A stretch of DNA of 18,612 nucleotides from Tepidisphaerales bacterium (lineage in GTDB: Bacteria > Planctomycetota > Phycisphaerae > Tepidisphaerales > Tepidisphaeraceae), in assembly GCA_038213005.1 (NCBI GenBank), contig JBBQTU010000061.1:1-18612 (forward strand), read 5' to 3'. The stretch's first letter is position 1. Each line of letters begins with the position of its first letter. The notes beneath the pieces were generated by a model. That model was not told the DNA's origin and did not search any database. It worked only from the letters and a program-made list of their open reading frames with translations. Below are positions 1 to 15,949 of this stretch, piece by piece. Made by a program: the position numbers and the translations under genes.

Positions 1-1
1 A

Positions 2-841
2 GGGCGTCTTGAGGAGGCCAGGCGGTGTACTGCGCAGATCGCCCGGCACTATGAGAACTTCACGGTGGTGTCGTGGATGCTGCCGCGGGCGATGCGTCAG
101 CACTTCTACAACGTCTATGCTTTCTGTCGCCATGCGGATGATCTGGCCGATGAGATCGCCGAGAAGGAGCGGTCGCTGGCTGAGCTGGCACGCCTGCGGG
201 AGGATGTCCGGCGCATGTATGGCGGTGAGCCCGAGCATCTCATCCTGGTCGCCTTGCGCGAGACGGTGCGGCAGTATGAGATTCCGCCGGAGCCGTTTCT
301 GGCGCTGATCGACGCGTTTGAGCAGGATCAGAAGGTAAGCCGGTATGAGACGTTTGAGCAGCTCCGCGACTACTGCCGGCGCAGTGCGGATCCGGTCGGG
401 CGGCTGGTACTCTATATGGCGGGGTATCGGGATGCCGAGCGTCAAGCCCTATCCGACTGCACGTGCACGGCGCTGCAACTGACCAATTTCTGGCAGGATG
501 TGGCGAGTGATCTTGGCCGGGGACGGATCTACATTCCGCGGGAGGATATGACGCGGTTCGGCGTGTGCGAACAGGACATCGTGGCCCGGCGATCGACGCC
601 GCAGTTTATCGAGATGATGAAGTTTGAGGTTGCCAGGGCGAGGGATCTGTTTGCCGATGGCCGCAAGTTGCTGCCGATGGTGAATCGGCGCGTGCGCGGC
701 GACATAGCTCTTTACGGGCTGGGCGGCCTGGCGATCTTGGATCGAATCGCCGGCGTCGGCTATAACGTGCTGGAGCGGCGGCCGACGCTGAGCAAGGCCG
801 CCAAACTTGGCCTCATAGCCCGCTATCTCATCGGAGTCTGA
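2..841 (+). CDS. hpnC: Squalene/phytoene synthase family protein, HpnC-like (hydroxysqualene synthase). 5' end lies outside the window.
   Basis: The reading frame is open from base 2 (…IARHYENFTVVSWMLP…). It carries the VYAFCRHADDLADE and NFWQDVASDLGRGRIYIPRED motifs typical of trans-isoprenyl diphosphate synthase head-to-head enzymes. The N-terminal YENF(P/T)V…LP signature matches HpnC. The stop overlaps the hpnD ATG (TGATG). Confidence 0.8.
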   Translation, partial: GRLEEARRCTAQIARHYENFTVVSWMLPRAMRQHFYNVYAFCRHADDLADEIAEKERSLAELARLREDVRRMYGGEPEHLILVALRETVRQYEIPPEPFLALIDAFEQDQKVSRYETFEQLRDYCRRSADPVGRLVLYMAGYRDAERQALSDCTCTALQLTNFWQDVASDLGRGRIYIPREDMTRFGVCEQDIVARRSTPQFIEMMKFEVARARDLFADGRKLLPMVNRRVRGDIALYGLGGLAILDRIAGVGYNVLERRPTLSKAAKLGLIARYLIGV

Positions 842-1845
842 TGCCCGACGAACTGGAACAGTCGCAGGAGTGGTGCCATCAGCGGATGCGTGAGGCGGCG
901 CGGAATTTCTACTACGGCATGCGCCTGCTGGCCCCCGACAAACGCAATGCCATGTATGCCCTGTATGCGTGGATGCGATGGATCGACGACCTGGCCGATG
1001 GGCCTGAAGACCAGCGCGATGAGGATCGCGATCTGGTCGCGGTCCGCAACTCGCTGGAGGATTGGCGCGAGCTGACGCATCGGGAACTGCAACCGGCTGC
1101 TGCCGGTAAATCCGAAATACGAAGTACGAAATACGAAACACCCTCTCCCAACCTCCCCCAAGGGGGAGGGGAAGAGAGTGGCGGCGGCCGCGCTGGCGGC
1201 GGCGCCGGCGGTCAGACGCCCTCGCATCCGATGTTCCCGGCCTTGGCCGAGGCGGTTCATCGGTTTGGCATCCCACCGGGGTTGTTTGATGAGGCGATGG
1301 ACGGGCAGCTTCAGGATCTGGAGCAGTCGCGATACGCCACCTTTGATGAACTCTACCGCTACTGCTACCGCGTGGCTTCGACCGTGGGCATCGCGGCGGT
1401 TTATATCTGGCGATTCAATTCGCCCGATGCCATCAAGCTGGCCGAGTATCGCGGCATCGCGTTTCAGCTCACCAACATCCTGCGGGACTTGCGCGAGGAT
1501 GCCTCGCGGGGGCGTGTCTATCTGCCGCAGGAAGATATTTCGCGATTTGGCGTGAGCCATCTGGACAAGCCTTCGCGGGAGCTGGCCGATCTGATCGCCT
1601 TCCAGGCCCGCAGGGCGAAGGAGTACTACCGGCAGTCGGCGCCGCTGGAGTCCATGATCGAGCCCGACTCGCGCCCGACTCTGCGGGTGATGACGGCGAT
1701 CTACGGCGGCATCCTCGACCAGATCATCGCCGACCCGCTGGCCGTGCTGCACAAGCGGGTTTCGCTATCGGGGCCGCGCAAGGTGGGCGAAGTGATGCGT
1801 CAGCTTTACCTCGCCGAGAAGTTGGCGATTGACGGAGCGCAGTAA
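841..1845 (+). CDS. hpnD: Presqualene diphosphate synthase HpnD-like (squalene/phytoene synthase family), with a ~40-aa low-complexity insertion.
   Basis: NFYYGMRLLAPDKRNAMYALYAWMRWIDDLAD and FQLTNILRDLREDASRGRVYLPQED motifs are present. It is translationally coupled to hpnC. At 334 aa it is ~45 aa longer than typical HpnD, because of the KSEIRSTKYETPSPNLPQGGGEESGGGRAGGGAGGQTP segment. Confidence 0.8.
   Translation: MPDELEQSQEWCHQRMREAARNFYYGMRLLAPDKRNAMYALYAWMRWIDDLADGPEDQRDEDRDLVAVRNSLEDWRELTHRELQPAAAGKSEIRSTKYETPSPNLPQGGGEESGGGRAGGGAGGQTPSHPMFPALAEAVHRFGIPPGLFDEAMDGQLQDLEQSRYATFDELYRYCYRVASTVGIAAVYIWRFNSPDAIKLAEYRGIAFQLTNILRDLREDASRGRVYLPQEDISRFGVSHLDKPSRELADLIAFQARRAKEYYRQSAPLESMIEPDSRPTLRVMTAIYGGILDQIIADPLAVLHKRVSLSGPRKVGEVMRQLYLAEKLAIDGAQ
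1105..1215. repeat. Intragenic repeat block inside hpnD: 4 tandem 7-mers (cgaaRYa, 1113-1140), a 42-bp imperfect palindrome (1139-1180; core cctccccc-aa-gggggagg) and a (ggc/gcg) tract.
   Basis: Read directly. caccctctcccaacctcccccaagggggaggggaagagagtg is nearly self-complementary. It is AT-rich and low-complexity, unlike the surrounding codon-biased sequence, yet stays in frame. Confidence 0.7.
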
Positions 1846-1847
1846 CA

Positions 1848-3137
1848 GTGACCCTGGACGCGATCGTTGTCGGCGGGGGACTGGCGGGCATGTCGGCCGC
1901 CACAGCGCTCACCGATGCCGGGGCGAGGGTTGCGCTGATCGAACAGCGCGGCTTGCTTGGCGGCCGGGCCGGCAGCTTTGTCAGTCCCGCCTTTTCCCGG
2001 CGCATGCTGGATAACTCTCAGCATGTCCTGCTGGGCTGCTGTGACGAACTCCAGGCGTTCTACGCGCGGCTCGGAGTCTCTCATCTCATCCAGTTTCAGG
2101 ATGACCTGATCTTCGCTGGTACCACCGGGCGCCGCGGAGTCATGAAGACATCCTGTCTGCCCGCGCCACTGCATCTTGGCCCGTCGATGCTGGGATTTGG
2201 CCTGATCCCGCTAGGGCATCGCATCGAGGTCGCCCTGGCGATGCTGCGAATGCAGGCGATCGGCCGGGATGGCCGCAACCAGTTCGCCGATGTCTCCTTT
2301 GAGCGCGTCCTGCTCGATCTGGGTCAGTCGGCCGGGGCCATCGCGTCATTCTGGGATGTCATCTGCGTGTCGGCGTTGAATGAGCCGTGCGCCACCGCGG
2401 CCGGGCACTACGGGCTCCAGGTTTTCCAGGAGGCGTTCCTGGGCGCTCGCGGCGGCTATCGTCTGGGCTTTGCCCGCGTGCCGCTGTCGATGCTGTATCG
2501 GCACCTGCCGATCGAGACGCTGCTGAACACATCGGTCAAGTCGCTCATTGTCGAATCCGGCCGCGCGTGCGGGGTGAGGCTCACCGATCGCGAACTGCGC
2601 GCCGACCGCATCATCCTGGCCGTCTCTCCCTGGTCGGCAGCGAGGCTATTCACCGCCGAACTGCTCGATGCCGACCCGCAACTCCGCCGCGTGCAGTCCC
2701 TCCAGTATCGCCCGATCGTCGGCGCGCATCTGCAATTCGACCGGCCGATCCTTGACGTCCCCAACCTCGCATTGATGGGCACGCGCCTGCACTGGGCATT
2801 TGCCGATAGCGACGATCCGACGCTGATCCACGGCGTGGCCAGTGCAGCCGACGACCTGTGCCCCCTGCCCCAGCAGGCCATTGCCGACCTGTTCGTCAAT
2901 GAGCTGCGCCAAACCTGCCCGGCCGCACGCAGCGCCACGCTTAGCCACTTTTTGATCGTCAAGGAAACCCGCGCCACCTTCCGCCCGCTACCGGGAGTCG
3001 ATGCTTTCCGCCCAACCCAACGGACGCGTGTCCCCGGTCTGACCCTGGCGGGCGATTACACGCAGACCACATGGCCCTCCACCATGGAGGGCGCAGTCCG
3101 ATCCGGCCGCCTTGCAGCGCGGGCTGCTCTGCGCTGA
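1848..3137 (+). CDS. hpnE: Hydroxysqualene dehydroxylase HpnE-like (FAD-dependent amine oxidase family).
   Basis: GTG start 3 nt after the hpnD stop. N-terminal Rossmann motif IVVGGGLAGMSAA…ALIEQR…LGGR. Contiguous with hpnC and hpnD. Confidence 0.85.
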   Translation: MTLDAIVVGGGLAGMSAATALTDAGARVALIEQRGLLGGRAGSFVSPAFSRRMLDNSQHVLLGCCDELQAFYARLGVSHLIQFQDDLIFAGTTGRRGVMKTSCLPAPLHLGPSMLGFGLIPLGHRIEVALAMLRMQAIGRDGRNQFADVSFERVLLDLGQSAGAIASFWDVICVSALNEPCATAAGHYGLQVFQEAFLGARGGYRLGFARVPLSMLYRHLPIETLLNTSVKSLIVESGRACGVRLTDRELRADRIILAVSPWSAARLFTAELLDADPQLRRVQSLQYRPIVGAHLQFDRPILDVPNLALMGTRLHWAFADSDDPTLIHGVASAADDLCPLPQQAIADLFVNELRQTCPAARSATLSHFLIVKETRATFRPLPGVDAFRPTQRTRVPGLTLAGDYTQTTWPSTMEGAVRSGRLAARAALR

Positions 3138-3299
3138 GTTGACAGGTGTGTGTTGCAGAGGAATAAGGAAGCGGCTGCGCCGACAGAATCGCTACGGCCG
3201 AGGACGGCACGTGCCACGGCTCGTGCAAAACAGAGCGCATCCTGGCCGGCGGGACAATCGAGCAAAAGCGAGAACTGATAGGCTTTTACGTACCGATAA

Positions 3300-3739
3300 T
3301 CAGGACGGCCCCGAACGAACTCCTATCACGTCGCTCTCAGCCTTCACGCGGCGCTCTTTAGCCAGACTGTAGCGGGGGAGGGTTTTGACGCCACCGAATG
3401 CTTCAATCAGTACATTTCCGGGATTGGCCCACTCTGTGCGACTGATCGTCTCGTGGCCGCTGCCGGAGACCCAAGCCCAGTCGCCCCGGCTCTTGGATCG
3501 GCACCGCTGCGATTTTGGGAACCACGCGATCTCACGGCGTGTCACGGAACAAAACGAAAGTACGACATCAAGGTATTGTCTTGACCGGCCAAGTGTTTCG
3601 CCTCGGGCGCGTTCTTCAGGGGTACGATAGCTGCGATCTGCCCCGTCGCCTCGTCGTAAGCCCAGCCAGCGTAAGCCCAACCGGGCGAAGCGACAGGCGA
3701 TTGCGTTGACACACTGGCGTGCCGCACTCGGGACATCAT
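3300..3739 (-). pseudogene. Two overlapping reading-frame fragments (3542-3739 and 3300-3680) that may be one degraded, frameshifted gene.
   Basis: No intact ORF. Frame B contains …GDWAWVSGSGHETISRTEW…, which faintly resembles a metallophosphoesterase GHxH-type motif. GC is lower than in the hpn genes. The region lies between hpnE and a decayed copy of the hpnE 3' end. Weakly supported. Confidence 0.25.
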
Positions 3740-3742
3740 TCC

Positions 3743-3856
3743 AGGCCTGACCCTTGCCGGGGATTACACGCAGACAACCTGGCCCTCCACCATGGAAGGC
3801 GCAGGTCTTGGTCCGACAACGACCTACAACAATCTTGCCAGAATTTGTTTGACCTG
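3743..3856 (+). pseudogene. Decayed duplicate of the hpnE 3' end (encodes IPGLTLAGDYTQTTWPSTMEGAG…).
   Basis: Bases 3745-3820 are ~85% identical at nucleotide level to 3037-3110 of the intact hpnE (cctgaccct.gc.gg.gattacacgcagac.ac.tggccctccaccatgga.ggcgcag). Only ~30 codons are conserved and there is no upstream continuation. Confidence 0.7.
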
Positions 3857-3955
3857 CCTCATCCGTTGTGGTTCTATGGGAGGTGCAAATCGTGCCGGTG
3901 GATATCTTGTTTGCCGGCCGTCATATCTGGTGGTCATTTTTTGTGGAGGACGGTT

Positions 3956-4234
3956 ATGCCTTTAGGAACCGTCAAGTGGTTTGATGCGAAGAAGGGTTAC
4001 GGCTTCATTCTTGGCCCCGAGGGCAAGGATGTGTTCGTTCACTTCAGTACGATCGCCGGCGATGGCTTCCGGTCCCTGCGGGACGGTGAGGCGGTCGAGT
4101 ACGACCTGACGGAAGGCGACAAGGGTCTGCTGGCCACTGCCGTCCGCCGGGCGGCCGCTGAGGCGATGGCGGGATCGGTCGAACCGGCCGCGCCAACCCC
4201 TTGGCGTGATCAATCGGTGTCGATGCACAATTAG
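3956..4234 (+). CDS. Cold-shock protein (CspA family) with a ~25-aa C-terminal tail.
   Basis: MPLGTVKWFDAKKGYGFI…DVFVHFS… cold-shock domain with RNP-1/RNP-2 motifs. SD GGAGGA lies 6 nt upstream of the ATG at 3956. The ORF tracker's upstream extension from 3719 has no supporting signal. Confidence 0.85.
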   Translation: MPLGTVKWFDAKKGYGFILGPEGKDVFVHFSTIAGDGFRSLRDGEAVEYDLTEGDKGLLATAVRRAAAEAMAGSVEPAAPTPWRDQSVSMHN

Positions 4235-4539
4235 TCTGGTGCGTCAGAAGGCTGACTCCCTGAGGTGGCATGTGTCCGCCAACTGCGAACGCATGGTTGC
4301 CAAGCGATATGAGGTGGCATTGGTGTGAAGCAGCACACGGGCCATCGCAGGAACATTTCGGTCTGGAATATTTTTAAGACACGTTCGGTGAAGACTGTTT
4401 CGCGGTCGGAGCGGTACGCCGTACAGGGCGCTTATCCAACGGGTAGGTGAGTGCGGCGGTCTGAGATGGGGCGGGCTGCCCCCGGTGCGGATGCTTTCTG
4501 TGCCGTGGGGCAGTCCGCTGCTGTCCGGGACCGGGCACC

Positions 4540-4725
4540 TCAGAACGACACGACCAATTGCCAGATGAAGGTGTAGGCGAGTGAGTCGACATCTTCCCAG
4601 ACCTTCTTGACCAGTTGTTCGTCGCCGGTCATCGGGGGGAGTTCCTGCTTCTTCTGGTCCCACGGGATGCAGACGCCAGGCGCGGGCGCGGGTGTCGCGG
4701 AAGGGGTTGGGGACACGGTTTCCAT
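4540..4725 (-). CDS. Small hypothetical protein (61 aa), translationally coupled downstream of the URO-D-like methyltransferase.
   Basis: AAAGGA sits 6 nt upstream of the ATG, which is 22 nt after the stop of the upstream gene on the same strand. No recognisable domain: Pro/Thr-rich N-terminus and a hydrophobic C-terminus (…LAYTFIWQLVVSF). Confidence 0.4.
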   Translation of the reverse strand: METVSPTPSATPAPAPGVCIPWDQKKQELPPMTGDEQLVKKVWEDVDSLAYTFIWQLVVSF

Positions 4726-4749
4726 AATGGGTCCTTTGTTAACTCGCGG

Positions 4750-5946
4750 TCAATACTGGCCGAACTCGCGGGCGGCCTGCGTCATGGCCTTCATGTTCTC
4801 GACGGTGGCGTCGTTCTGGATGATGGCGCCGGCGTCGAGGATGAAGCCGCCATCCCGGCCGACTTCCTGGATCACTTTCTTCACCCGGTCGCGGACCTCC
4901 TGCGGCTTTCCGTAGGCCAGCAGGGCGTTGTCGATGCCGCCGGAGATGGCGAACTTGTGGTGCAGGGCCTTGTGGACCAGGGCGATGTCATCCCGGTCGC
5001 AGTGGAAGACGATGCTGCCTTCGGGCAGTTCGCAGAAGGCCTTGAGGTGGTATTTCCACTTGCCTTCGGCGTAGAAGAGGACCTGCCGGCCACGCTTGTG
5101 AAGCTCGAGGATGATCGGCTTGAGGGTCGGCCAGTACATGGTGTCGAAGGTCTCCTGGGAGATCAGCGGGACGCAGCCGCGATGCATCCAGAAGCCGATG
5201 GGAACCGTGCCGGTGGGGTCGGAGCTGGTCAGGGCCACGTGGAGCATGTGGGGCATGAGAGCCTCGGCGGCCTTCTTGACCTGGGCGGGGCGCTCGAAGA
5301 CGTCTTCGGTGAGGCCGAGGTAGCCGCGGAACTTGTCGGCGATGATGTCGAAGGGGGACTTGAGGATGCCGGCGATGGCCGAGGGCATGGCGGCATCAAC
5401 CCGCATGCGCTGGACCTGGGCGGGGAATGAGCCGAAGTAGCTCATCAGGGCCATGCCGCCTTTGACCAGGGCGAGGTTGCTCTGGTAGGTCGCCGGCTCA
5501 CCGGGCCTGGTTACTTGCGTGGAGACGCGCGGGAGCCAGGTGTTGTAGAGGAAGGCCGTGGGGTCGGCGATGAGCTGGTCGTACTCGTCGGCCTGCATCC
5601 AGGATTGTCCCTCGGGAGGTTCGAGGTATTGGAAGCCGGTGTCAGGTGCGTGCCCGACGCCGGGGATGGCGTAATAGCGGAGTCCGACGGCCTGGGCGAT
5701 GCCGCCCCAGACGTAGACCATGTTGGCGACGGCGGCGTCCCAGTCGAAGTCGGCGCAGGTCTTGACGGTCGCGTCGAAGGCGAGGTTGAAATCCTGGGTC
5801 ACCTGCTGGCAGGTATAGCCGGTGTATCGCGCCACGAACTCGGCGACGAAGGGGCGAATGGGAACGCAATCGGGCTTGCCGTTGCGCAAGGCCGTGGTGT
5901 ATCGCTTGAGCCGCTGCTGGTAGAGCGTTTCTTTGTCGGTGGACAT
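4750..5946 (-). CDS. Uroporphyrinogen-decarboxylase-superfamily protein, MtaA/CmuA-like methyltransferase.
   Basis: Length and the C-terminal …GGFILDAGAIIQNDATVENMKAMTQAAREFG are characteristic of the URO-D-like methylcobamide methyltransferase fold. Start chosen at MSTDKETLYQQ (5946). An in-frame alternative start at 6018 adds 24 aa. Confidence 0.6.
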   Translation of the reverse strand: MSTDKETLYQQRLKRYTTALRNGKPDCVPIRPFVAEFVARYTGYTCQQVTQDFNLAFDATVKTCADFDWDAAVANMVYVWGGIAQAVGLRYYAIPGVGHAPDTGFQYLEPPEGQSWMQADEYDQLIADPTAFLYNTWLPRVSTQVTRPGEPATYQSNLALVKGGMALMSYFGSFPAQVQRMRVDAAMPSAIAGILKSPFDIIADKFRGYLGLTEDVFERPAQVKKAAEALMPHMLHVALTSSDPTGTVPIGFWMHRGCVPLISQETFDTMYWPTLKPIILELHKRGRQVLFYAEGKWKYHLKAFCELPEGSIVFHCDRDDIALVHKALHHKFAISGGIDNALLAYGKPQEVRDRVKKVIQEVGRDGGFILDAGAIIQNDATVENMKAMTQAAREFGQY

Positions 5947-6137
5947 AAGAGCACCAGTATAGCCGTGGCGAAAGAAGAAAGCAGGCGGCGTCTCGGACAA
6001 CACGGCGTGTCGGACCACCGTTGGCCTGCTTCAGGCACTGTCGCACTTCTATCGCCTGTTTGGCAAGCGCTTCGGTCTGACTCTGCGGAACTACCGGCAG
6101 CGGCAGCAGATGATCCTGGGGCGGGGGGAGCGACGCT

Positions 6138-6236
6138 GAGGGCGGGTGAGGCGATTCCGGGTTGGCGCCCGATTGACAGGCGTTGCGGCTGACTTACGAT
6201 GCTTGCGGCGGCGGGAGTTGTCGATTCCTTTCCGGA
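6138..6236 (+). promoter_or_regulatory. Conserved promoter/leader element, copy 1: GATTCC…CGATTGACA-16nt-TACGAT…GCGGGAGTTGTCGATTCCTTTCC.
   Basis: Sigma70-like -35 TTGACA and -10 TACGAT with a 16-nt spacer. ~80% identical over ~100 bp to 12888-12990. Lies immediately upstream of nfeD and divergent from the URO-D-like methyltransferase. Confidence 0.55.
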
Positions 6237-6242
6237 TACACC

Positions 6243-6818
6243 ATGCGAGCATTCTATTTCTTCTGCGCATTAGCGGGCGGAGCGCTGTTCTTCCTGCAGT
6301 TCCTGCTGGGGCTGTTTGGGCACGGCGACGGGCATGATGTGGATGGGCATGTGGATGCCCACGCCGGGGGGGATGTCGGGCACGAGACGAGCATGTTGAC
6401 CGGCATTCTCACGCTGCGGGCGATGGTGGCGGGGCTGACGGTTTTCGGGCTTACGGGCCTGATTACGCTCACATCGACGATGCACGTGGGGCTGGGGCTA
6501 CTGATCTCAATCGGGGCGGCATTCGTGAGCATGATGATCGTCGCAGCGCTGATGCGTTCGATGAGCAGTCTGTATAGCGAGGGGACCGTCCGGGTCGAGA
6601 ATGCCGTCGGCCGCCCGGGGACGGTATATCTGGGCATCCCGGCCAGGGGCAACGGCGTCGGCAAGGTGACGCTGACGCTGCAGAATCGGACGGTTGAATA
6701 TCAGGCTGTGACGGCCGGTGAGGCGTTGCCCATCGGGACCCGAATCAATGTGACCAAGGTAATCGGCGCCGACACTGTCGAGGTGGTAGGTGCCATGAAA
6801 CAGGAGAAAGTCGCGTGA
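6243..6818 (+). CDS. NfeD-family membrane protein (YqiJ-like, short form with C-terminal OB-fold).
   Basis: An N-terminal membrane segment, a His/Asp-rich linker (HGDGHDVDGHVDAHAGGD), more membrane helices and a C-terminal beta-rich soluble domain. The stop overlaps the flotillin GTG (GTGA). This is the classic nfeD-SPFH operon arrangement. The tracker's upstream extension from 6183 uses a TTG. Confidence 0.7.
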   Translation: MRAFYFFCALAGGALFFLQFLLGLFGHGDGHDVDGHVDAHAGGDVGHETSMLTGILTLRAMVAGLTVFGLTGLITLTSTMHVGLGLLISIGAAFVSMMIVAALMRSMSSLYSEGTVRVENAVGRPGTVYLGIPARGNGVGKVTLTLQNRTVEYQAVTAGEALPIGTRINVTKVIGADTVEVVGAMKQEKVA

Positions 6819-8467
6819 ATACCCTATTGCCCCTGGCGCTACTGACGGACGATCCGTACTTCCTTTCCGGCGTGCTGGTGGTCTTCGGCGTCTTTTTCCT
6901 GTTCAGCATCTTCCTGCTGTTCGTCCGGCGGTACAAGCGCTGCCCGAGCAACCGCGTGCTGGTGGTTTTCGGCAAGGTCGGGGCCGGCACGTCCGCCAAG
7001 TGCATCCACGGCGGCGGCACGTTCGTTCTGCCGCTGATCCAGGACTACAGCTACCTGAGCCTGGAGCCGATCCAGGTCGAAATCCCGCTGCAGGATGCCC
7101 TGTCGATGGAGAACATTCGCGTCAACGTCCCCAGCGTGTTTACGGTGGCGATCGGCACCGAGCTGGAGGTCATGCAGAACGCCGCCATCCGCCTGCTCGG
7201 GCTGGACACGGCTCACGTCAAGCAGCAGGCGCAGGACATGATCTTCGGACAACTGCGCCAGGTCATCGCGTCGATGCGGATCGAGGACATCAACCGCGAC
7301 CGCGAAGTATTTTTACAGAACATCCAGACGTCACTGGAGCCCGAACTGCGCAAGATCGGCCTGGTGCTGCTGAACGTCAACATCACCGATATCACCGACG
7401 CCTCGGGCTACATCGAGGCCATCGGCAAGAAGGCCGCGTCGCTGGCGATCCAGCAGGCGCGTGCTGATGTCGCCGACAATGAGAAGATGGGCGAGGTCCG
7501 CGTCGCCGAGGCCAAGCGGGAGAAGGACATCCAGGTTGCCAACGCCAACAAGCTCCGCGAGATCGGCATGCGCGAGGCGCAGCGCGAGCAGCTCGTGAAG
7601 GTGGCGCAACTCGAAAAGGAACAGAAGATCGGCGAACAGACCGCCTCTTATGAACGTGAGACGCAGGTCAAGAACGCCGAACGCGACATGCGCATCACGA
7701 TGTCCGACGCCAACGCCAAGGCCATCGCCGGCGAAGCCAGGGCACAGGCCGAGATCGTCAACACCCAGGCGCAGCTCCAGGTGAAACAGGCCGAAGCCTA
7801 TCAGCTCGGCGAGACCCGCAAGCGCGAATCCGAAGCGGCCGTGCTTGAGGCGCAGAACCGCGCCATGGCCAAGGCGGCCATCGCTGACGCCGAACGAGTT
7901 GAGGCCGAGCGCCGGGCGCAGCTCGAAGCGCCCGCGAAGGCGGATAAGGCCAAGATGATCGTCGATGCCGAAGCCGCCGCGGCCAAGAAGCGGATCGAGG
8001 CCGAGGGTGAGGCGTCTGCAATCTTCGCCCGGCTCGAAGCCGAGGCCCGCGGCCAATACGAGCTCCTGGCCAAAAAGGGCCAAGGCCTCGAACGGATCAT
8101 CCAGGCCTGCGGCGGCGCAAAGGAGGCGTTCCAGCTCCTGATGCTCGAACACCTGGACAACCTGGCGGAAACCGCCGCCACGGCGATCTCCAAGATCAAG
8201 TTCGACAAGATCGTGGTCTGGGAACAGGGGGGCAAGGATGGCAGTTCCAATACCGCCAACTTCCTCCATGGTCTATCTCGCACGCTGCCTCCGATGATGC
8301 AGGTGATGAAGGACATCGGCGGCGTGGAGCTCCCGGAATACCTGGTCAAGCTGGGCGGCGACCCGGGCGACAAGCAGTGCGACAAGCCTGCGGCTACGGT
8401 GACGGCCGATGGGGCCGTGAACCAGGCCGATAAGGGCAGCGCAGCGCACGGGGTGGAAAAGGCCTGA
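6815..8467 (+). CDS. Flotillin-like SPFH/band-7 protein (YqiK/FloA-like).
   Basis: N-terminal TM helix, then SPFH domain (…RVLVVFGKVGAGTSAKCIHGGGTFVLPLIQDYSYLSLEPIQVEI…), followed by a long Ala/Glu/Lys/Arg/Gln-rich coiled-coil region and flotillin C-terminus. SD AGGAGA 8 nt upstream of the GTG. Confidence 0.85.
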   Translation: MNTLLPLALLTDDPYFLSGVLVVFGVFFLFSIFLLFVRRYKRCPSNRVLVVFGKVGAGTSAKCIHGGGTFVLPLIQDYSYLSLEPIQVEIPLQDALSMENIRVNVPSVFTVAIGTELEVMQNAAIRLLGLDTAHVKQQAQDMIFGQLRQVIASMRIEDINRDREVFLQNIQTSLEPELRKIGLVLLNVNITDITDASGYIEAIGKKAASLAIQQARADVADNEKMGEVRVAEAKREKDIQVANANKLREIGMREAQREQLVKVAQLEKEQKIGEQTASYERETQVKNAERDMRITMSDANAKAIAGEARAQAEIVNTQAQLQVKQAEAYQLGETRKRESEAAVLEAQNRAMAKAAIADAERVEAERRAQLEAPAKADKAKMIVDAEAAAAKKRIEAEGEASAIFARLEAEARGQYELLAKKGQGLERIIQACGGAKEAFQLLMLEHLDNLAETAATAISKIKFDKIVVWEQGGKDGSSNTANFLHGLSRTLPPMMQVMKDIGGVELPEYLVKLGGDPGDKQCDKPAATVTADGAVNQADKGSAAHGVEKA

Positions 8468-8599
8468 CCGAGGAGCCGGCGACCGCCACCGCAGAGCGTG
8501 GCGGCGGAAGTATAGCGCAGGCAATCGATTGACCGTCATCAAGTCGCTGTCCTATTTCAAAGAGGCCGATGCGGAGGGGCCTGCGGCCAAGTGGGGCGG

Positions 8600-8804
8600 G
8601 CCGCCTCGGCCGCCCATCTGGTCGCTCGCCAACCACCCGCCCATCGCAGCGCCACACCCTCAACCGCCGATCCGCCAAACAGTAGTGCGTGGCGTCCCGC
8701 CCGCACATGTCTTACAGGTGAGTAATCGCCGGCCAAGCCGTTGACGATCTTCATCGTTTCGATGCTGACGTAACGCAACGAAAGGGCTGCCGAGGCAGCG
8801 GCCC
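8600..8804. repeat. ~200-bp direct repeat, copy A. Shared core: …ggccgcccatctggtc.ctcgccaaccacccgcccatcgcagc…gccgatccgccaaacagtagtgcgtggcgtcccgcccgcacatgt.ttacaggtgag.aatcg…ccaagccgttgacgatct.catcgtttcgatgctgacgtaacgcaac.aaagggctgccgaggc.
   Basis: ~94% identical to 9948-10139 by direct comparison. Its 3' ~55 bp also matches 12296-12352. Lies between the flotillin operon and the TA module. Confidence 0.85.
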
Positions 8805-9007
8805 CACCGTGAGGACGCGCAATGGACTTACGCTGTAGTGCTAGGAGTAATATACACACAGCGAGGCCCAACCAGAACAACCCAAGGCCAAAGGTGAGGC
8901 ATTGGCCGAACCGGTCCGGTCCTGAGGCCATCATCACGGGTAAGGCGGGACGGCATATCGATCCCATGCCCGTTTTCCGGCCCACCAAGCCCGCTTTCTG
9001 CGTCCTT

Positions 9008-9481
9008 CTATTCTGTCGGCTGCCGCAGCAAGTCCAGAAACTCCTCTACAGCCAGCACTTTGACTTTCGGGAAAAGCCGCCTGAACTCCGCAGACCAGGG
9101 TTTATCCGGACTACTCAACCCAAGAAGGTGACGGTCGCGACTGACAATCAGCCGGGCTTCAGCCGCCACCGCCAGATCCACATACGGGGAGTCGTCAGGA
9201 TCAATCGGGTGGTCAAACACATGTGGAACAGGAGCGACAACCAGGCACGACGGCAACAACGCATCCAGAAACGCCACCACCTTGGCATCGGTCACGTCGT
9301 ACTTCGCCAGCAGTTTGCGGGGAAGATCTTCGATCTCCGCAATCACGTAGGGACTGAGAACCACAACGAACTCGTTCTTGACGCCGCGCTCAACACACTC
9401 GCCCGCCGGTCCGTACGGGTTAATGAGAGCTTGGGCAAACACCATGCAATCCAGCACCGCTCGCATGGGTCGGCTATTCAT
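9008..9481 (-). CDS. PIN-domain toxin (VapC-like).
   Basis: Size and the …AVLDCMVFAQALI…VVVLSPYVIAEI…LAVAAEARLIVSRD… pattern fit a PIN fold. The ATG at 9481 overlaps the upstream antitoxin stop (ATGAATAG). The 9526 start in the tracker would overlap the antitoxin by 50 nt. Region GC ~52%. Confidence 0.65.
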   Translation of the reverse strand: MNSRPMRAVLDCMVFAQALINPYGPAGECVERGVKNEFVVVLSPYVIAEIEDLPRKLLAKYDVTDAKVVAFLDALLPSCLVVAPVPHVFDHPIDPDDSPYVDLAVAAEARLIVSRDRHLLGLSSPDKPWSAEFRRLFPKVKVLAVEEFLDLLRQPTE

Positions 9482-9746
9482 CAAAGGAGATACCGCGTTT
9501 GGTTTCCCTCGCCTGATGCTTGGCACGTTCTAGGTCGTCGCCAAGTTGTTCGTCTGTCAGACCGCTGGCGAGGAACCGATCATAGGTGTTGCCACTGATC
9601 TGACGCAGATAGTCGCGGGTCAACCCGTGAGTCAGGACTCGCGAGAGCAACTCAGAGGCAAGGATACCCAGATCCTTGCCTGCGGCCGTAGCCCGCTCGC
9701 GCAGGAGAATCTCAACTTCAGGCGATAATGCAACGGAAACCGTCAT
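9474..9746 (-). CDS. Ribbon-helix-helix (CopG/Arc-like) antitoxin.
   Basis: 90 aa, immediately upstream of and overlapping the PIN gene. N-terminal VALSPEVEILLRERATAAGKDLGILASELLSRVL resembles the RHH beta-strand/helix DNA-binding motif. No SD. Confidence 0.55.
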   Translation of the reverse strand: MTVSVALSPEVEILLRERATAAGKDLGILASELLSRVLTHGLTRDYLRQISGNTYDRFLASGLTDEQLGDDLERAKHQARETKRGISFDE

Positions 9747-9947
9747 CAAAGAATAGTATGGGCAGCAACCAGGTCCAAGTCAAACTCTTACGTCGTTGTC
9801 TTGGGAATTTCACGAGGTTGGAATCAATGCCGAGGTTGACAGCGATTCCGCCGCCCCAGCCCAGGAACCCCGACCTCAACAACCAGCGCGCCGCCGCGCC
9901 GCTCCCAGAGTGGGGCCGGCCGCTGCGCAGCATCTCGCCGTGGTGGA

Positions 9948-10139
9948 CCCGGCCGCCCATCTGGTCCCTCGCCAACCACCCGCCCATCGCAGCACCATAC
10001 CCCCAACCGCCGATCCGCCAAACAGTAGTGCGTGGCGTCCCGCCCGCACATGTATTACAGGTGAGCAATCGACAGCCAAGCCGTTGACGATCTCCATCGT
10101 TTCGATGCTGACGTAACGCAACAAAAGGGCTGCCGAGGC
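9948..10139. repeat. ~200-bp direct repeat, copy B.
   Basis: See copy A, with ~12 mismatches over 190 bp. Lies between the TA module and the RM module. Confidence 0.85.
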
Positions 10140-10264
10140 GGGCGATGTATTGGAGGTCGTCCTGTCGGTTTGGGTCGCTGGTAATATTGCTGCGGGTGTC
10201 GGTGTAGACAAGGTATTGGTCGGTGACCCATTCCAGGGCGGAGCGGTTGCCGAGGCGGTAGTTA

Positions 10265-11230
10265 TCAACTGGCTTCCGCCTCTGCTTCAGGTTGCACGGC
10301 TTTGAGGACGGTCGGTTCTGCAGCGGCGATTGGATGTGGCCGTGAGAGGAATTCCCATAAGTCAGTGCAGAAGAACCGGTCGATGGAGTGAATTTGCAGC
10401 TTGAGGAACGCATCCGTCTGCATATTGGGGCGAAGGTCGCAGTAGTACACGCCATCGAGAGGGTTTAGCTTAACCGAGTAGCCCTTGAAGTGTCCGGGCA
10501 AAAATGTGGCATTGATGCCGAAGTTGGGATGTATCCCCTTGCGTTGCACGTCATTGAGGAACAGTGCGACGTGTGGCGTTTGCGTCTGCGTCAGCTTGGA
10601 GTAGAGGAACTTGTCGATGAAGATCTTGTCCATTCGGTCCTTACTCGACGTCTTCACGGAGCCGAGAATCTTGATGTGTTTATCTCGCGTAATGACCAAA
10701 TCGTGCTGGTAGGTCATCTTGAATTCTTCGACACCGTCAACGATGATCGGGATGCCGATGGACCCGCTCTTGCAGTCGACCGCGAGGCCAGAAATCAGCA
10801 GTCTTATCAGCCTCTCGAAGAGATCCCCTGCGACCTTGCTGGCGTTATTCGAGACCGGATGCGCGTCCAGGCACACGCCGATGCACTGCTGAATCGTATA
10901 GATCGAATTGCGCATGATGGTGCGACTCGCCACGTCGTCCGCAGCAATGTCCTTCGCGTGCTTCATCACAGCGGCGAAGTCCCTGGAAAGCACGTTCGCC
11001 TTCTGCGGCGCATACATAAGTTGGCTGTTCACCGGCCGGCTTACTTTGCGGTCGCCGTCGTCCTTGAACTGGTAAAAATAGTAGTGACCCTCATTCCTCG
11101 CCAAGACAGTGCCATGTACACCGCCCTTACCCAGGAAGTCGAGGAAACGGCGTGCGAAGTCCACGTAAGCTTTGACATTGCTGAAGTTCGTCTTGTCGGC
11201 GGCAAAGGAAACGAGTTGGTTCAGAGTCAT
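10265..11230 (-). CDS. Putative Type II restriction endonuclease (family not recognised).
   Basis: Its ATG overlaps the stop of the upstream beta-class DNA methyltransferase (ATGA at 11227-11230). GC is ~50% in a ~65% genome. A PD-(D/E)XK-like stretch (…HDLVITRDKHIKILGSVKTSSKDRMDKIFIDK…) is possible. Assignment rests on operon context. Confidence 0.5.
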   Translation of the reverse strand: MTLNQLVSFAADKTNFSNVKAYVDFARRFLDFLGKGGVHGTVLARNEGHYYFYQFKDDGDRKVSRPVNSQLMYAPQKANVLSRDFAAVMKHAKDIAADDVASRTIMRNSIYTIQQCIGVCLDAHPVSNNASKVAGDLFERLIRLLISGLAVDCKSGSIGIPIIVDGVEEFKMTYQHDLVITRDKHIKILGSVKTSSKDRMDKIFIDKFLYSKLTQTQTPHVALFLNDVQRKGIHPNFGINATFLPGHFKGYSVKLNPLDGVYYCDLRPNMQTDAFLKLQIHSIDRFFCTDLWEFLSRPHPIAAAEPTVLKAVQPEAEAEAS

Positions 11231-12183
11231 CGGATGCTTTCTCTTCGTGTGGCGTTTCGCCGGTCGTGCTCTATCCACTCGTCGACAGGCGTTCGTTTGA
11301 CGTTTTCAATTCGCTCCACCGCCCATCTTGTATACTCCGTGCTTTGGTCGCATGCGAGCCACCTCCGACCGAGTTGCTCGGCTACCGCCGCCGTCGTGCC
11401 GGAGCCACTGAAAGGGTCGATGACAAGGTCGCCCGGATCGCTCGCGGCGAGCACAAGTTTGCGCACCAACTCCTCTGGCTTTTGCGTGGGATGGGGCGTC
11501 TTTTCGCCCATGCCATTGCAGGTCGTCGGAATCTCAAGCACATCCTTTGGCTTTGCTCCGAGTGGGTTCGGGGTCCAATCGTCTTCGCGCTTCCGACCGC
11601 TGCCAAAGTTGCTCGTGATCGCCTGAGGGTGTGTCGGGTATTTCAGCGTGTGAGCGCCGTACGGTATGCGGACCTTGTCCACGTTCAGACGGAATTCGTC
11701 GGTCTTCCGAAGGTGCAAAATGCTTTCGTGTGACCGCCCCCAGTCACTTCCGAGGTTCGCCTTGTTCTTGTAGTGCCAGACCAGCCACTTGCAGTGCTTG
11801 AACAAACGCGACGCCGGGTGCTTCATATCCGCAAGGATCTCTGAGAAGCCGCACACATAGAGCGATCCCGAAGGCCTCAGCGCCCGCGCGGCGGGCTCAA
11901 GCCATCGCATCGACCATTGTATGTAATGCTCCTGGCTCTCAAACGCGTCCCAATCAGCTTTGTTGATGTTGTACGGCGGATCAGCGAAAATCAGATCGAC
12001 GGACGACGGAGGGAGGGATTCCAGCCAAGGTATGCAGTCACCAACGTAAAGCGATCCATTCGGATGCGTGTAAAACAACGCGAAGCCTTCGCCATTGACC
12101 GTGCTATCGACGAACTTACCGCGAGTTGGACCGGGCTCCGCAAAGAGCTGCGGTGTCCCAGGCTTGAACCGCTTTATGGGCAT
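11227..12183 (-). CDS. Beta-class DNA methyltransferase (probably N6-adenine, possibly N4-cytosine).
   Basis: Motif IV DPPYN (…LIFADPPYNINKADWD…) precedes motif I FSGSGTT (…VIDPFSGSGTTAAVAEQLGRRW…). That permuted order defines the beta group. Low GC. Confidence 0.85.
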   Translation of the reverse strand: MPIKRFKPGTPQLFAEPGPTRGKFVDSTVNGEGFALFYTHPNGSLYVGDCIPWLESLPPSSVDLIFADPPYNINKADWDAFESQEHYIQWSMRWLEPAARALRPSGSLYVCGFSEILADMKHPASRLFKHCKWLVWHYKNKANLGSDWGRSHESILHLRKTDEFRLNVDKVRIPYGAHTLKYPTHPQAITSNFGSGRKREDDWTPNPLGAKPKDVLEIPTTCNGMGEKTPHPTQKPEELVRKLVLAASDPGDLVIDPFSGSGTTAAVAEQLGRRWLACDQSTEYTRWAVERIENVKRTPVDEWIEHDRRNATRRESIR

Positions 12184-12295
12184 TTCAGAACCTTAACATA
12201 TTCCAGGGCCTACTGGTAGCCACATCCATGCTCGCGCGGGCAGTACGGAGCCCGGAATCGGAAGAGGTTGACGCCCTGCTGGATAGCACGGCACC

Positions 12296-12352
12296 GATGG
12301 AGGTGCTGACGTAATGCAACGAAAGGCCGGCCGAGGCGGTCGCCCCACTGCG
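12296..12352. repeat. Partial third copy (3' ~55 bp) of the 200-bp repeat.
   Basis: gatg..ctgacgtaa.gcaacgaaagg…gccgaggc.g…gcccca c.g.g.g matches the end of copy A. The match includes the A-specific tail beyond the point where copy B diverges. Confidence 0.6.
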
Positions 12353-12887
12353 GAGACCGGGAAACAGAATATCTTTCAAATCCAACTTGACCCATCAAGA
12401 CCCGTATCTTATGCTTATCTCACTTAGCCATAGCGCCCAGTGTGCGCGCTGGCTACGGTGCTCTTTGAAAAGTGAATATCCGGCCATTTACTGGCCAGTG
12501 CCGCCATGCGGCCCCGCGGCACTCCGTCGGACTAGCGAACTTTACCGTATGCTAACATCTACCGTCGCACAGGTGCCCTGCCTTCCACCGGTCCCGTTCT
12601 GACTCGACTTACATTCAAGCGCCTCGGCAGAACGAAACTTGAGCATCTGACCCCTTGAATCGCACGTAAGTCCTTATCAAAACTCCTCTCCCGACCCCCT
12701 CCCCCCACCCCTGGAAAACGTGCGCATCTTGCCCGCCCGATCGCACGTAAGTCAGACTGGCAGTGCGGGGGAATGGTGGAAAGTCAGTGGCAAGCAGAAA
12801 GGCCAGCGCAATAACGGTGGTGGAAAGCACTCGCCACGCGCAGGATGCAAAGTCACGGGCACGCCCGCCTGCAAGGCCGCAAGGCCA

Positions 12888-12990
12888 GACTACGCGCGAA
12901 TCGATTCCAGCCCGACGGCCGATTGACACGCGGGCCGGCTCACTTACCATGTTTTGCGATGGCGGGAGTTGTCGATTCCTTTCCCGATAG
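12888..12990 (+). promoter_or_regulatory. Conserved promoter/leader element, copy 2 (-35 TTGACA, -10 TACCAT, conserved downstream GGCGGGAGTTGTCGATTCCTTTCC).
   Basis: Aligned by eye to 6138-6236 (~80% identity). Lies ~115 bp upstream of the homocysteine methyltransferase ATG. Confidence 0.55.
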
Positions 12991-13105
12991 GCCGGGTGCT
13001 TTGACGCCGCATGGGGTGGAAAAGGCCAGACCGCGGAGCCGGAAGTGGCTGCGGCGTTGCGCAGCGAAAACCAACTCGAACGTTTCAGCACGAAGGGATC
13101 GCGAC

Positions 13106-13993
13106 ATGGGTATCATTCTGGATCGTCTGGCCAAGAAGAAGCTGCTGGTGTCCGACGGCGCCTGGGGCACGATGCTGCAGGCCCAGGGGCTTGGCGGTGG
13201 CGACATTCCGGAAGAGTGGAACGCCACGCACCCCGATGCCGTGCGCTCGGTCGCCGCGGCCTATGACCAGGCCGGCTGCGATATCGTCCTCACTTGCACG
13301 TTCGGCGGGTCGTCGGCGAAGCTGGAGAAGTGCGGCCTGGGCGCGCGGGTTGTGGAACTGAATGAGAAGGGGGCCAGGTTGTCGCTGGAGGGCGCGCCCC
13401 ATGCGTGCGTGGCGGCGTCGGTGGGGCCCACGGGCGAGTTCCTCGAACCCATGGGCGACCTGACCGAAGCGCAGATGGAAGCGATCTACCGCGAGCAGAT
13501 CGCCGCCATTTACGCAGCCGGCGTCAAGGCGGTCTGCATCGAGACGATGTCGTCGCTTGAGGAAGCCACCTGCGCGATCCGCGCGGCCAAGAAGCTGAAT
13601 AAGGACAATGATGTCATCTGCACGATGACGTTCGCCGCGGCGGGCGATGGCTACAAGACGATGATGGGCGTGAGCTGCGAAGAGGCGGCCAAAGGCCTGA
13701 CCGCGGCCGGCGCGGACATCGTCGGGGCCAACTGCGGCAACGGGCCGGAGGAGATGATCGCCATCACCCGCGAGATGCGCAAGCACACGAAGCGGCCGAT
13801 CCTGGTCCATCCCAATGCGGGGATGCCGCAACTGGTGGACGGCAAGACGGTTTTCAAGCAGACGCCGGCCGACATGGCGGCCAAGGTGCGAGACCTGGTC
13901 GCGGCCGGGGCCTCGATCATCGGAGGGTGCTGCGGCACCACCCCGGCACATATCGCCGCGATCAAGGTTGTGGTGGATGAGCTTCGGAAATAA
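13106..13993 (+). CDS. Homocysteine S-methyltransferase domain protein (MetH N-terminal domain / MmuM / BHMT-like, Pfam S-methyl_trans type).
   Basis: …LLVSDGAWGTMLQ…DIVLTCTFGGS…GANCGNGPEEM…IIGGCCGTTPAHIAAI…. The zinc-ligand cysteines lie in the GxNCG and GGCCG motifs. SD AAGGGA 7 nt upstream of the ATG at 13106. The tracker's 12845 start is an upstream run-on. Confidence 0.85.
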   Translation: MGIILDRLAKKKLLVSDGAWGTMLQAQGLGGGDIPEEWNATHPDAVRSVAAAYDQAGCDIVLTCTFGGSSAKLEKCGLGARVVELNEKGARLSLEGAPHACVAASVGPTGEFLEPMGDLTEAQMEAIYREQIAAIYAAGVKAVCIETMSSLEEATCAIRAAKKLNKDNDVICTMTFAAAGDGYKTMMGVSCEEAAKGLTAAGADIVGANCGNGPEEMIAITREMRKHTKRPILVHPNAGMPQLVDGKTVFKQTPADMAAKVRDLVAAGASIIGGCCGTTPAHIAAIKVVVDELRK

Positions 13994-14017
13994 GTTTTGC
14001 ATACAGAGGCGAGAAAC

Positions 14018-15088: not shown

Positions 15089-15171
15089 GCCGCGGTCTGG
15101 CCCAGGCCCTCGATCCGCTCGGGGCAGATCGACGGGCTAGCACTACAGCGCAACTTCATAGCGATGCGATG

Positions 15172-15235
15172 CAATTTCAAATAGGACGCGCTTCGATTGA
15201 CGGCAATTTCAAATAGGACGCGCTTCGATTGACGG
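15172..15235 (+). repeat. Perfect tandem duplication of the 32-bp unit caatttcaaataggacgcgcttcgattgacgg.
   Basis: Read directly. Each unit ends in the recurring CGATTGAC -35-like octamer. Lies downstream of the oxidoreductase gene and upstream of a small ORF with a strong SD. Confidence 0.8.
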
Positions 15236-15322
15236 CCCTTTTTGAAGAGTGTTATCCGCCCGGCTCGCTTACGGCCTCGATTGGCGCAGATTTTCAGAGA
15301 TTGAAGAAAGAGGAAACAGTCA

Positions 15323-15583
15323 ATGAGTCTTCATTGGTCTTCTTCTCAATCGCCGCAGCAACCCAGGAAAAGAAGCTTGACTGCGGCACAGGTATCCTCT
15401 GGAAGTCCCAGCCGTATCGGGTGGGCGCTAAATGATCGTCCTTACTGCCAGGCGGTCGATTTCGACAAGATTGCCCGCTTTCCCGGGCGGATGCAAGTTG
15501 CGCATCAGCGAGTGATTGGAGCGAATACGGTGCTGAAAGATGTGTCGCCCTTTCAGGCCTCATTCAGGGTGAATGGTTTTTAG
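15323..15583 (+). CDS. Hypothetical small protein (86 aa).
   Basis: Very strong SD (AAGAGGAAA, 6 nt spacer). Sits in a lower-GC patch with no overlapping alternative. No recognisable domain, and the Ser-rich composition is atypical. Confidence 0.35.
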   Translation: MSLHWSSSQSPQQPRKRSLTAAQVSSGSPSRIGWALNDRPYCQAVDFDKIARFPGRMQVAHQRVIGANTVLKDVSPFQASFRVNGF

Positions 15584-15588
15584 GACCC

Positions 15589-15679
15589 GCGCATCAATAA
15601 CCGTCCGGTTCAAAAAGCGCACCCCCTCCCAACCTCCCCTAGGGGGGAGGAGTACCATTCCTGCCAGTTATTGATGCGC
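15589..15679. repeat. MITE/REP-like palindromic element: 13-bp perfect terminal inverted repeats (gcgcatcaataac / gttattgatgcgc) around an inner hairpin ctcccaacctcccc-tag-gggggagg.
   Basis: Read directly. It sits exactly between two convergent stop codons (15583 and 15686). The inner core is shared with the hpnD intragenic palindrome (1139-1180) and partly with 12683-12714. Confidence 0.65.
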
Positions 15680-15685
15680 CGGTCT

Positions 15686-15949
15686 TTACGGCTGGCGCTT
15701 GGCGTCTTCGGCCGCCTTTTCGGCAGCGGCTTTGACATCGGCGGCTTCCTTGTCGGCCTTGGCCTTGGTGTCGGCGGCGGCCTTCTCAGCGTCGGCCTCC
15801 GCGTTGGCGGCATCCTTCTTGGCCTCGGCCCTGGTGTCGGCGGCGGTCTTGGCGGCGTCGGTGGCGGCGGGCGTTTGTGGCCGATCATCACAGCCCACCA
15901 TCAAGGCGCCTGTCAGAAACAGCGGCAGTATGAAAAGCTTCGTACGCAT
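15686..15949 (-). CDS. Small secreted Ala/Lys/Asp-rich lipoprotein (87 aa).
   Basis: Signal peptide with lipobox (MRTKLFILPLFLTGALMVGC). SD AAGGGAG 5 nt upstream. Low-complexity A/K/D/E repeats. The competing plus-strand Gly-rich ORF and minus-strand Pro-rich ORF are frame artefacts of the same repeats. Confidence 0.6.
   Translation of the reverse strand: MRTKLFILPLFLTGALMVGCDDRPQTPAATDAAKTAADTRAEAKKDAANAEADAEKAAADTKAKADKEAADVKAAAEKAAEDAKRQP

Follow-up and report, generated by a model that had tools for sequence, protein, structure and literature searches.

In-frame palindromic repeat DNA, probably selfish, in a loop-coding region of hpnD in a Tepidisphaerales bacterium

Repeat DNA carried in frame inside protein-coding genes has been described in several groups of bacteria. 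As two papers summarise them (PMC10969869, PMC3184786), Rickettsia palindromic elements (RPEs; Ogata et al. 2000, 2002) are palindromic repeats found in frame in unrelated genes; they are about 105–150 bp long, encode a conserved peptide and are confined to Rickettsia. Intragenic repetitive extragenic palindromic (REP) sequences tagged by GTAG or CGTC encode 20–82 aa, with examples that include Opitutus terrae, a bacterium of the Planctomycetes–Verrucomicrobia–Chlamydiae (PVC) group (Di Nocera et al. 2013, PMC3733652). [quoted passage not shown] Here we describe a case from a Planctomycetota/Phycisphaerae-like lineage, in which such elements have barely been described. It concerns an insert in hpnD, the gene for presqualene diphosphate synthase, in an 18,612-nt stretch of DNA from a Tepidisphaerales bacterium (assembly GCA_038213005.1, contig JBBQTU010000061.1, positions 1–18,612), referred to as a whole as the window. 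We suggest that the insert is probably non-autonomous palindromic repeat DNA of the REP/MITE type, selfish, and tolerated in frame in a loop of the enzyme.

Alleles and anatomy of the hpnD insert

A protein search for HpnD returned five close relatives and thousands of distant homologues, and the contigs of the relatives were read as DNA. Outside the insert the close orthologues are about 87–91% identical to hpnD, the compared genes differing there by 8–14%, and the insert site is a single codon position. At this codon the alleles carry 0, 57, 117, 195 or 210 nt (Table 1), and the close orthologues share no conserved segment of equal length. All lengths are divisible by three, and no allele has a stop in the frame of the gene. 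The protein alignment gives the same picture: the segment is missing in P0005 (89% identical outside the insert), in P0006 and in all more distant homologues, whereas P0004 has a shorter version of it and P0002 and P0003 have longer ones. Among the GTDB species representatives scanned, the best match was a metagenome-assembled genome (MAG) of Tepidisphaeraceae, with 50% identity. In a neighbour-joining tree of hpnD without the insert, the only supported grouping is that of L082 with L083 (99.5%). The first of these sisters has a long insert and the second a short one, so a deletion inside the insert must have occurred. The inserts of L081 and L082 contain two or three hairpin units in tandem; the hpnD copy of the window is a single-hairpin form with both outer arms present.

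A preliminary description, made from the sequence of the window alone, had presented the block as tandem heptamers, an imperfect palindrome and a GC-rich tract, foreign in composition, that keeps the reading frame and adds about 40 residues. All of this is borne out. The GC content is 0.43 in the heptamers and 0.90 in the GC tract, compared with about 0.63 in the hpnD gene, and relative to the empty allele the protein gains 39 residues (85–123). The block had been placed at 1105–1215; the insert is real, and the empty alleles set its true limits slightly wider, at 1093–1209. Within the core, the outer arms (1141–1149 and 1170–1178) enclose the inner arms (1152–1158 and 1163–1169) and a caag loop. 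Two copies in contig L181 (described below) account for the seemingly unpaired CCCCCTCCC stretch to the left of the hairpin, which forms the outer arm in a nested palindrome. A GGCGGCCGC or GGCAGCGGCCGC segment lies 3' of the core in all four filled hpnD alleles.

The core folds well. RNAfold of 1140–1182 gives -26 kcal/mol (z = -2.6), and the antisense strand of 1105–1215 folds more stably, at -51.8 kcal/mol (z = -3.4, with 0 of 200 shuffles as good), because G-U pairs lengthen the stem. These values, which beat those of shuffled sequences and more so in antisense, would suit a selected function, in which the insert serves as a linker or interaction segment of the protein, a hairpin of the hpnCDE mRNA, an antisense G-quadruplex or a heptamer frameshift switch. 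So would the retention of the reading frame in four alleles, the fit, in our reading, of GGGGAGGGTTGGGAGGGG, the G-rich complement of the wider consensus discussed below, to a pattern of four G-tracts, and the presence of GGAGG a few bases before ATG in several listed metagenome copies. However, the close relative L084 lacks the insert, whose length and sequence are highly labile, and the encoded peptide is of low complexity and predicted to be disordered. The G-rich strand of the window copy reads GGGGGAGGTTGGGAGAGGG, and the window copies have GG where a G-quadruplex needs GGG. At neither core copy in the window does a hairpin followed by a T-run match, and an intrinsic terminator was rejected; Rfam at gathering thresholds found no family in the whole window. 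The heptamer array has four units in each of the three alleles that carry it (the window, L081 and L082, with point differences) and is absent from L083, which shows no sign of phase variation; phase variation was rejected as well, and nothing seen in the array speaks for a frameshift switch. We consider a selected function of any of these kinds improbable.

Several further properties of the insert were examined. A permissive Rfam scan of 1050–1270 gave sub-threshold matches only, the best being whalefall-1 with 19.1 bits against a gathering threshold of 37; this match, at 1140–1172 on the minus strand (E 0.009 in a 221-nt search), probably reflects a common hairpin shape only. Open reading in all six frames was rejected as a special trait of the insert: five of the six are open, shuffles reach this in 5.6% of cases, and the other alleles are unremarkable. 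The heptamer word occurs 10 times in the whole window where 8 are expected, so only its tandem array is special. A comparison of the 42-aa insert peptide with 5.8 billion proteins yielded only one candidate with shared words, and nothing scored.

Table 1. Genes, insert components, hpnD alleles and related copies (positions without a contig prefix are those of the window)
Feature	Position	Strand	Description and basis
hpnC (squalene synthase HpnC)	65..841	+	TIGR03464 314.8 bits vs cutoff 250; Pfam SQS_PSY
hpnD (presqualene diphosphate synthase)	841..1845	+	Insert host, 334 aa; TIGR03465 best NCBIfam match, E 2.8e-70
hpnE	1848..3137	+	TIGR03467 368.7 bits; lacks two in-frame inserts found in relatives
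Lineage-specific in-frame insert	1093..1209	+	117 nt, residues 85-123 (PAAAGKSEIRSTKYETPSPNLPQGGGEESGGGRAGGGAG); missing in L084, L085 and distant homologues
Four imperfect tandem heptamers (cgaaRYa)	1113..1140	+	cgaaata cgaagta cgaaata cgaaaca; GC 0.43
Nested hairpin core	1141..1178	.	CCCTCTCCC-AA-CCTCCCC-caag-GGGGAGG-GGAAGAGAG, 38-41 nt; folding, related copies elsewhere
GC-rich tract	1179..1209	.	tggcggcggccgcgctggcggcggcgccggc; second small hairpin around GCGGCCGC; fold
Second core copy	15622..15650	+	CCCCCTCCC-AA-CCTCCCC-tag-GGGGGAGG; sequence match
Intergenic long hairpin	15584..15684	.	25-nt arms 15584-15608 / 15660-15684, 84% complementary
Allele of L084 (empty)	hpnD insert codon		0 nt extra
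Allele of L085 (outgroup)	hpnD insert codon		0 nt extra
Allele of L083	hpnD insert codon		57 nt; left arm decayed, no heptamers
Allele of the window	hpnD insert codon		117 nt
Allele of L082	hpnD insert codon		195 nt
Allele of L081	hpnD insert codon		210 nt; two intact hairpin units and a decayed third, in tandem
Related core copies in L081	L081: 681-705, 718-735, 1670-1712
In-frame insert in hpnE of L081	L081:1633-1761		129 nt / 43 aa, contains CACCCCCTCCCTAACCCTCCCCCAAGGGGGAGGGGACAAGAGG; filled vs empty alignment
Second in-frame insert in hpnE (L081 and L083)	L081:2415-2573		159 nt / 53 aa; empty site in the window near 2650
Two in-frame copies in LeuRS of L181	L181:3545-3667 and 5111-5233		123 nt each; metagenome contig of 44% GC

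The enlarged loop of HpnD

An AlphaFold2 model of HpnD built with 116 homologues has a mean predicted local distance difference test score (pLDDT) of 89.4 and a predicted template-modelling score (pTM) of 0.86. In this model a helix at 32–53 ends in the first Asp-rich motif, DDLAD (49–53), and is followed by a helix at 65–83, a coil at 84–131 and a helix at 132–142; the pLDDT is below 50 at 94–122. The stretch corresponding to T79–H129 comprises 10 residues in 58 of the 116 homologues and 10–18 in most of them, compared with 49 in the HpnD of the window. Both the model and the homologues agree with the placement of the block in a variable surface loop by the preliminary description, and the insert is predicted to be a disordered extension of a naturally variable loop between two helices. 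Within the helix bundle, the loop would occupy the end remote from the mouth of the active site. Compared with crystal structures of CrtM-like, CrtM and HpnC proteins, the model gives TM-scores of 0.84–0.90 relative to the target (by Foldseek, 0.90 to CrtM-like 8is8 and 0.84 to HpnC 4hd1). Sequence alignments to PDB entries pass over the insert region.

The locus lies on a metagenome-assembled contig, hairpins and repeats are prone to misassembly, and HpnD scores below its curated cutoff (236.4 bits against TIGR03465, for which the NCBIfam equivalog cutoff is 278.6), all of which might point to an assembly chimera or to an hpnD pseudogene that is still open by chance. Related inserts are, however, present at the same codon in four independent assemblies from different samples, which argues against an assembly artefact. 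The match to TIGR03465 falls into two stretches with the insert between them, and the low score is probably attributable to this split. Pfam assigns the product to SQS_PSY, the catalytic residues and all 38 invariant columns of the 116-homologue alignment are kept, and both Asp-rich motifs, DDLAD and DLRED (216–220), are intact. The HpnD fold is likewise predicted, with high confidence, to be intact. The gene is also tightly coupled to its neighbours in the hpnC-hpnD-hpnE operon with which the window opens, overlapping hpnC in an ATGA start/stop and leaving a gap of 2 nt to hpnE; HpnC and HpnE, encoded on either side, both exceed their NCBIfam cutoffs. An artefact or a decayed gene is very unlikely in our judgement.

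In the hpnC frame, which has its first start codon at 65, no stop intervenes up to the edge of the window, so hpnC is probably cut by the left end of the window. At the other end of the operon, the last 64 nt of hpnE (3033–3096, encoding PGLTLAGDYTQTTWPSTMEGA) are repeated with 88% identity at 3741–3804, about 700 nt downstream and directly upstream of a cold-shock-domain gene. The pair seems to be what is left of a duplication or rearrangement at the operon end. Downstream of hpnE the gene order is unlike that of L083.

Copies of the core elsewhere

The 14-mer CTCCCAACCTCCCC occurs exactly twice in the window, at 1145 and 15626 (0.16 occurrences expected; 1 of 200 shuffles gave two), and the stem pattern CCTCCCC-N1-6-GGGGAGG is found at the same two places only (0.00 expected). 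The preliminary description had noted a recurrence of the core in an intergenic element, and such a copy is indeed present at 15622–15650, at the tip of the 25-nt inverted repeat that spans 15584–15684. This long hairpin folds on the minus strand with -54 kcal/mol (z = -5.75). It lies between the ends of two convergent unannotated ORFs, ending at 15583 (+) and 15686 (-), for neither of which there is a Pfam match. The core copy within it has the left outer arm only and no heptamers. The histidine kinase next to the intergenic copy matches its relatives with 67% identity at most, and the data contain no comparable intergenic region. The flanking small ORF on the minus strand (15686–15949) encodes a hydrophobic N-terminus and a body rich in Ala, Lys, Asp and Glu, and its DNA consists of repeats with a 33-nt period (family D1, five copies).

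Further copies are found in the hpn genes of a relative. Among the first 87 loci, only L081 contains the stem pattern, with two occurrences in the hpnD insert and a third in hpnE. The core thus recurs outside hpnD both in the window and, in frame, in the hpnE of L081. The 129-nt hpnE insert that contains this copy is missing in the window (site 1990–2000), in L083 and in L087; it has CTTTC on both sides where the empty alleles read CTTTTC, and these flanks may represent a target duplication. The second hpnE insert, of 159 nt, carries the hairpins gccccttcagggc, ggggcgatgcccc and gccccgttggggc, which are unrelated to the core, encodes the peptide CRPFRAQG..GAMP.ANE.RPVGAEE and has no copy in the window. 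Together with the hpnD insert, the two hpnE inserts amount to three independent in-frame insertions of hairpin repeats in this lineage within about 3 kb of one operon.

The copies in hpnD, at 15622–15650 and in the hpnE of L081 have about 30 nt in common, arranged in one order, and these include the outer CCCCCTCCC arm and the AA that stays unpaired. The peptide that the core encodes depends on the frame, being PSPNLPQGGGEE in hpnD and PLPNPPPRGRGQ in the hpnE of L081. These shared 30 nt bear on whether the block could instead have grown in place, by slippage and hairpin-promoted duplication of a low-complexity sequence, its likeness to the other copies being convergence. Hairpin units have indeed been gained and lost in tandem among the hpnD alleles, the length of the loop varies naturally, and the insert is bounded by no clear terminal inverted repeat or target site duplication. 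Exact TACGAAA arrays of four to seven units also arise independently, mostly between genes, in five unrelated viral contigs (L208–L212, from IMG/VR; two are giant-virus MAGs), in one of which, L212, the array ends 8 nt upstream of an ATG. Convergence does not sit well with a likeness that extends beyond the C-run/G-run stem at three loci, with the clean presence or absence of the hpnE copy and its flanking CTTTC, or with the use of the same architecture as element ends elsewhere. Local expansion is therefore an unlikely origin for the block.

Metagenome contigs were scanned with the pattern CTCCC-N2-4-CCTCCCC-N2-4-GGGGAGG, which has 19 fixed bases, and at least 137 matches were listed. Their host contigs range from 27 to 72% GC. 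Directly upstream, 114 of the 135 distinct matches listed have CC[CT], which the pattern does not require. Among the matches listed, 44 of 137 are found 40 or more codons deep in stretches of 150 or more codons that contain no stop; some such stretches belong to low-GC contigs and so must be genes. As judged from translations, the motif is in frame in MetH (L096, L116), LeuRS (L181, two copies), a RimO-like protein (L127) and IleRS (L162). In MetH it falls in an inter-domain linker. The 123-nt unit of L181 has the ends AAGCCCCCTCC...GGAGGGGGCTT with a CCTCCCCCAAGGGGGAGG hairpin of its own at each end; aligned with the LeuRS of T. thermophilus, the first copy corresponds to a gap of about 40 unaligned residues and the second to a stretch that contains gaps. 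Compact two-hairpin versions are found in L100, L141 and L155 and 125-nt versions in L109; in L100, L109 and L155 the two hairpins are mirrored. In other bacteria the core forms the inverted ends of MITE-like elements of 70–220 nt.

Short tandem repeats with periods of 7, 8 and 10 are modestly enriched beside the listed metagenome hairpins. A single composite element of heptamers and hairpin was rejected: the association is seen in 5 of 137 matches and 7 of 1200 controls (p = 0.005), and periods 8 and 10 are enriched as well. L083 and the intergenic copy lack heptamers, and the heptamers and the hairpin are treated here as separate modules, the array being a simple-sequence module that does not define the element.

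It is conceivable, if doubtful, that the core is the end-module of an undescribed, cross-phylum family of tiny non-autonomous elements. Such a family may have the layout (A)AGCCCC(C/T)TCCC, two bases, CC(C)TCCCC, loop, GGGGAGG(G). The evidence does not tell one family from convergent C-run/G-run hairpins selected by the search pattern. If a single conserved mechanism of spread does exist, it would give hairpin DNA a general way of adding disordered loops to the proteins of bacteria. The candidate mechanisms are a single-strand transposase of wide distribution and a host pathway of repair that acts on hairpins.

The window contains other repeats. A 190-nt direct repeat with 95% identity (8607–8796 and 9950–10139, with a third partial copy at 12304–12357) brackets hypothetical ORFs and an N6/N4 DNA methylase gene (11227–12183, minus) and may be a repeated intergenic module or an island border. 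A 32-nt unit (GCAATTTCAAATAGGACGCGCTTCGATTGACG) is perfectly duplicated in tandem at 15171–15234, directly after the stop codon of a GFO/IDH/MocA oxidoreductase gene. A unit of about 17 nt (CGTCCTCTTTGAGAGGCG), itself a small palindrome, is present in four to five tandem copies at 16009–16095, between the small ORF at 15686–15949 (minus) and a hybrid histidine kinase gene. Modules of about 95 nt with TTGACA...TACGAT-like hexamers (6143–6238 and 12893–12989) lie upstream of two unrelated genes, an ORF at 6183 and a homocysteine S-methyltransferase gene, and a second repeat, of 35 nt, has copies 91% identical at 8441–8479 and 13004–13042. Both of these may be shared promoter or leader cassettes.

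Origin of the insert and its relation to known repeats

Based on these observations, we favour an origin of the block as selfish palindromic repeat DNA. Repeat DNA would have entered hpnD in a recent ancestor of the lineage, and the insert would later have been remodelled through hairpin-mediated duplication and deletion of hairpin units. Transposition may have been the way of entry, rather than repair from a template or the copying of another copy, and the heptamer array and the GC tract may stem from local slippage or from co-insertion. Selection would leave only insertions that keep the frame, contain no stop and fall in a permissive loop; the insert would persist because its length is a multiple of three, it has no in-frame stop and it lies in such a loop, here the one between the helix after the first Asp-rich motif and the next helix. 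Because this loop is naturally variable and is predicted to be disordered with the insert, HpnD is expected to stay active, with the 39 extra residues as passenger sequence. The earlier proposal that a palindromic element had landed in a gene of an essential pathway is supported, with qualifications. A polymorphic insertion and a repeat are both present, but instead of a single element the block combines several modules, each with a history of its own, into a mosaic. The pathway of hopanoid synthesis is conserved but is not generally essential.

Several observations weigh against an origin from mobile repeat DNA. No terminal inverted repeat bounds the hpnD insert as a whole, and its ends have only short GC-rich direct repeats (CCGGC), which are possibly due to chance in GC-rich DNA. 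Pfam matches to the 17 ORFs of the window include no transposase or RAYT gene, and there is no GTAG or CGTC tag beside the stems at 1135–1185 or 15615–15655. For this organism, the 18.6-kb contig yields a count of only two core copies. The empty allele of L084 is placed with a bootstrap of 9–26%, which does not distinguish a single gain from a gain followed by precise loss. The in-frame state of the filled alleles is partly a selection effect, as they were fetched as full-length proteins. In the metagenomes, some matches are due to chance, given 19 fixed bases and a very large database, and mirrored outer arms were found in 27 cases downstream and in 18 of the upstream control, in what is a weak test. 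No rival explanation accounts as well for both the polymorphism and the core of about 30 nt that three loci share.

At one codon there are alleles with no insert and with a short, a medium and a long one. They provide a clean natural experiment on how repeated hairpin DNA may lengthen a surface loop in a conserved enzyme and leave the enzyme intact. For annotation, such inserts drop a genuine HpnD below the curated cutoff (236 against 278.6 bits) and give rise to low-complexity regions that are spurious. Should the wider family prove real, variation in protein loops and in-frame polymorphic markers in uncultured bacteria would have one more source.

In cyanobacteria, tandem heptamer repeats (short tandemly repeated repetitive sequences, STRR) are reportedly accompanied by 21–27-nt hairpin-type mobile repeats that nest in other repeats, as Elhai and colleagues are said to have described in 2008. 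The present case belongs to a different phylum and has different sequences, and the association of heptamers with the hairpin is weakly supported here. Among the papers searched for the literal core sequences, none contains the core.

Like RPEs, as those two papers describe them, the inserts are short palindromic DNA found in frame in metabolic and housekeeping genes that are unrelated to one another, where they add a peptide segment at sites that suit the protein fold; there are intergenic copies too, and presence varies between close relatives. Unlike RPEs as described there, the conserved unit is a hairpin of about 30–40 nt that forms a mosaic together with heptamers and a GC tract, and the core is read in different frames at different sites, whereas RPEs keep a conserved peptide. 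No RPE-type model is among the NCBIfam or Pfam matches to HpnD. With REPs the core shares the form of a GC-rich imperfect palindrome of 20–40 bp (38–41 nt in hpnD) with G-T pairing in the stem, as well as intragenic occurrence as single units, dimers and clusters; REPs lie mostly between convergent or co-directional genes, and the intergenic copy of the window is likewise between convergent ORFs. In contrast to REPs, there is no GTAG or CGTC at the stem ends and no RAYT or TIRYT gene in view, and the layout is a nested one of outer arm, AA and inner hairpin. By sequence or tag, the element is a member of neither the RPE nor the tagged REP family.

The insert resembles MITEs in its small size (57–210 nt), hairpin formation, filled and empty sites in relatives, fusion inside a coding sequence and absence of a transposase, and relatives of the core form the inverted ends of elements of 70–220 nt (L181, L109, L155), with clear terminal inverted repeats in L181. 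It differs from them in that the hpnD insert has no clear terminal inverted repeat or target site duplication, and the window copies resemble solo ends or single-hairpin derivatives. Membership in the MITE class is plausible for the L181 relatives and, for the window copies, unproven. Set beside these systems, the hpnD insert is an ordinary yet clear case of selfish repeat DNA tolerated in a gene, and the cross-phylum pattern of the core is what is most worth following.

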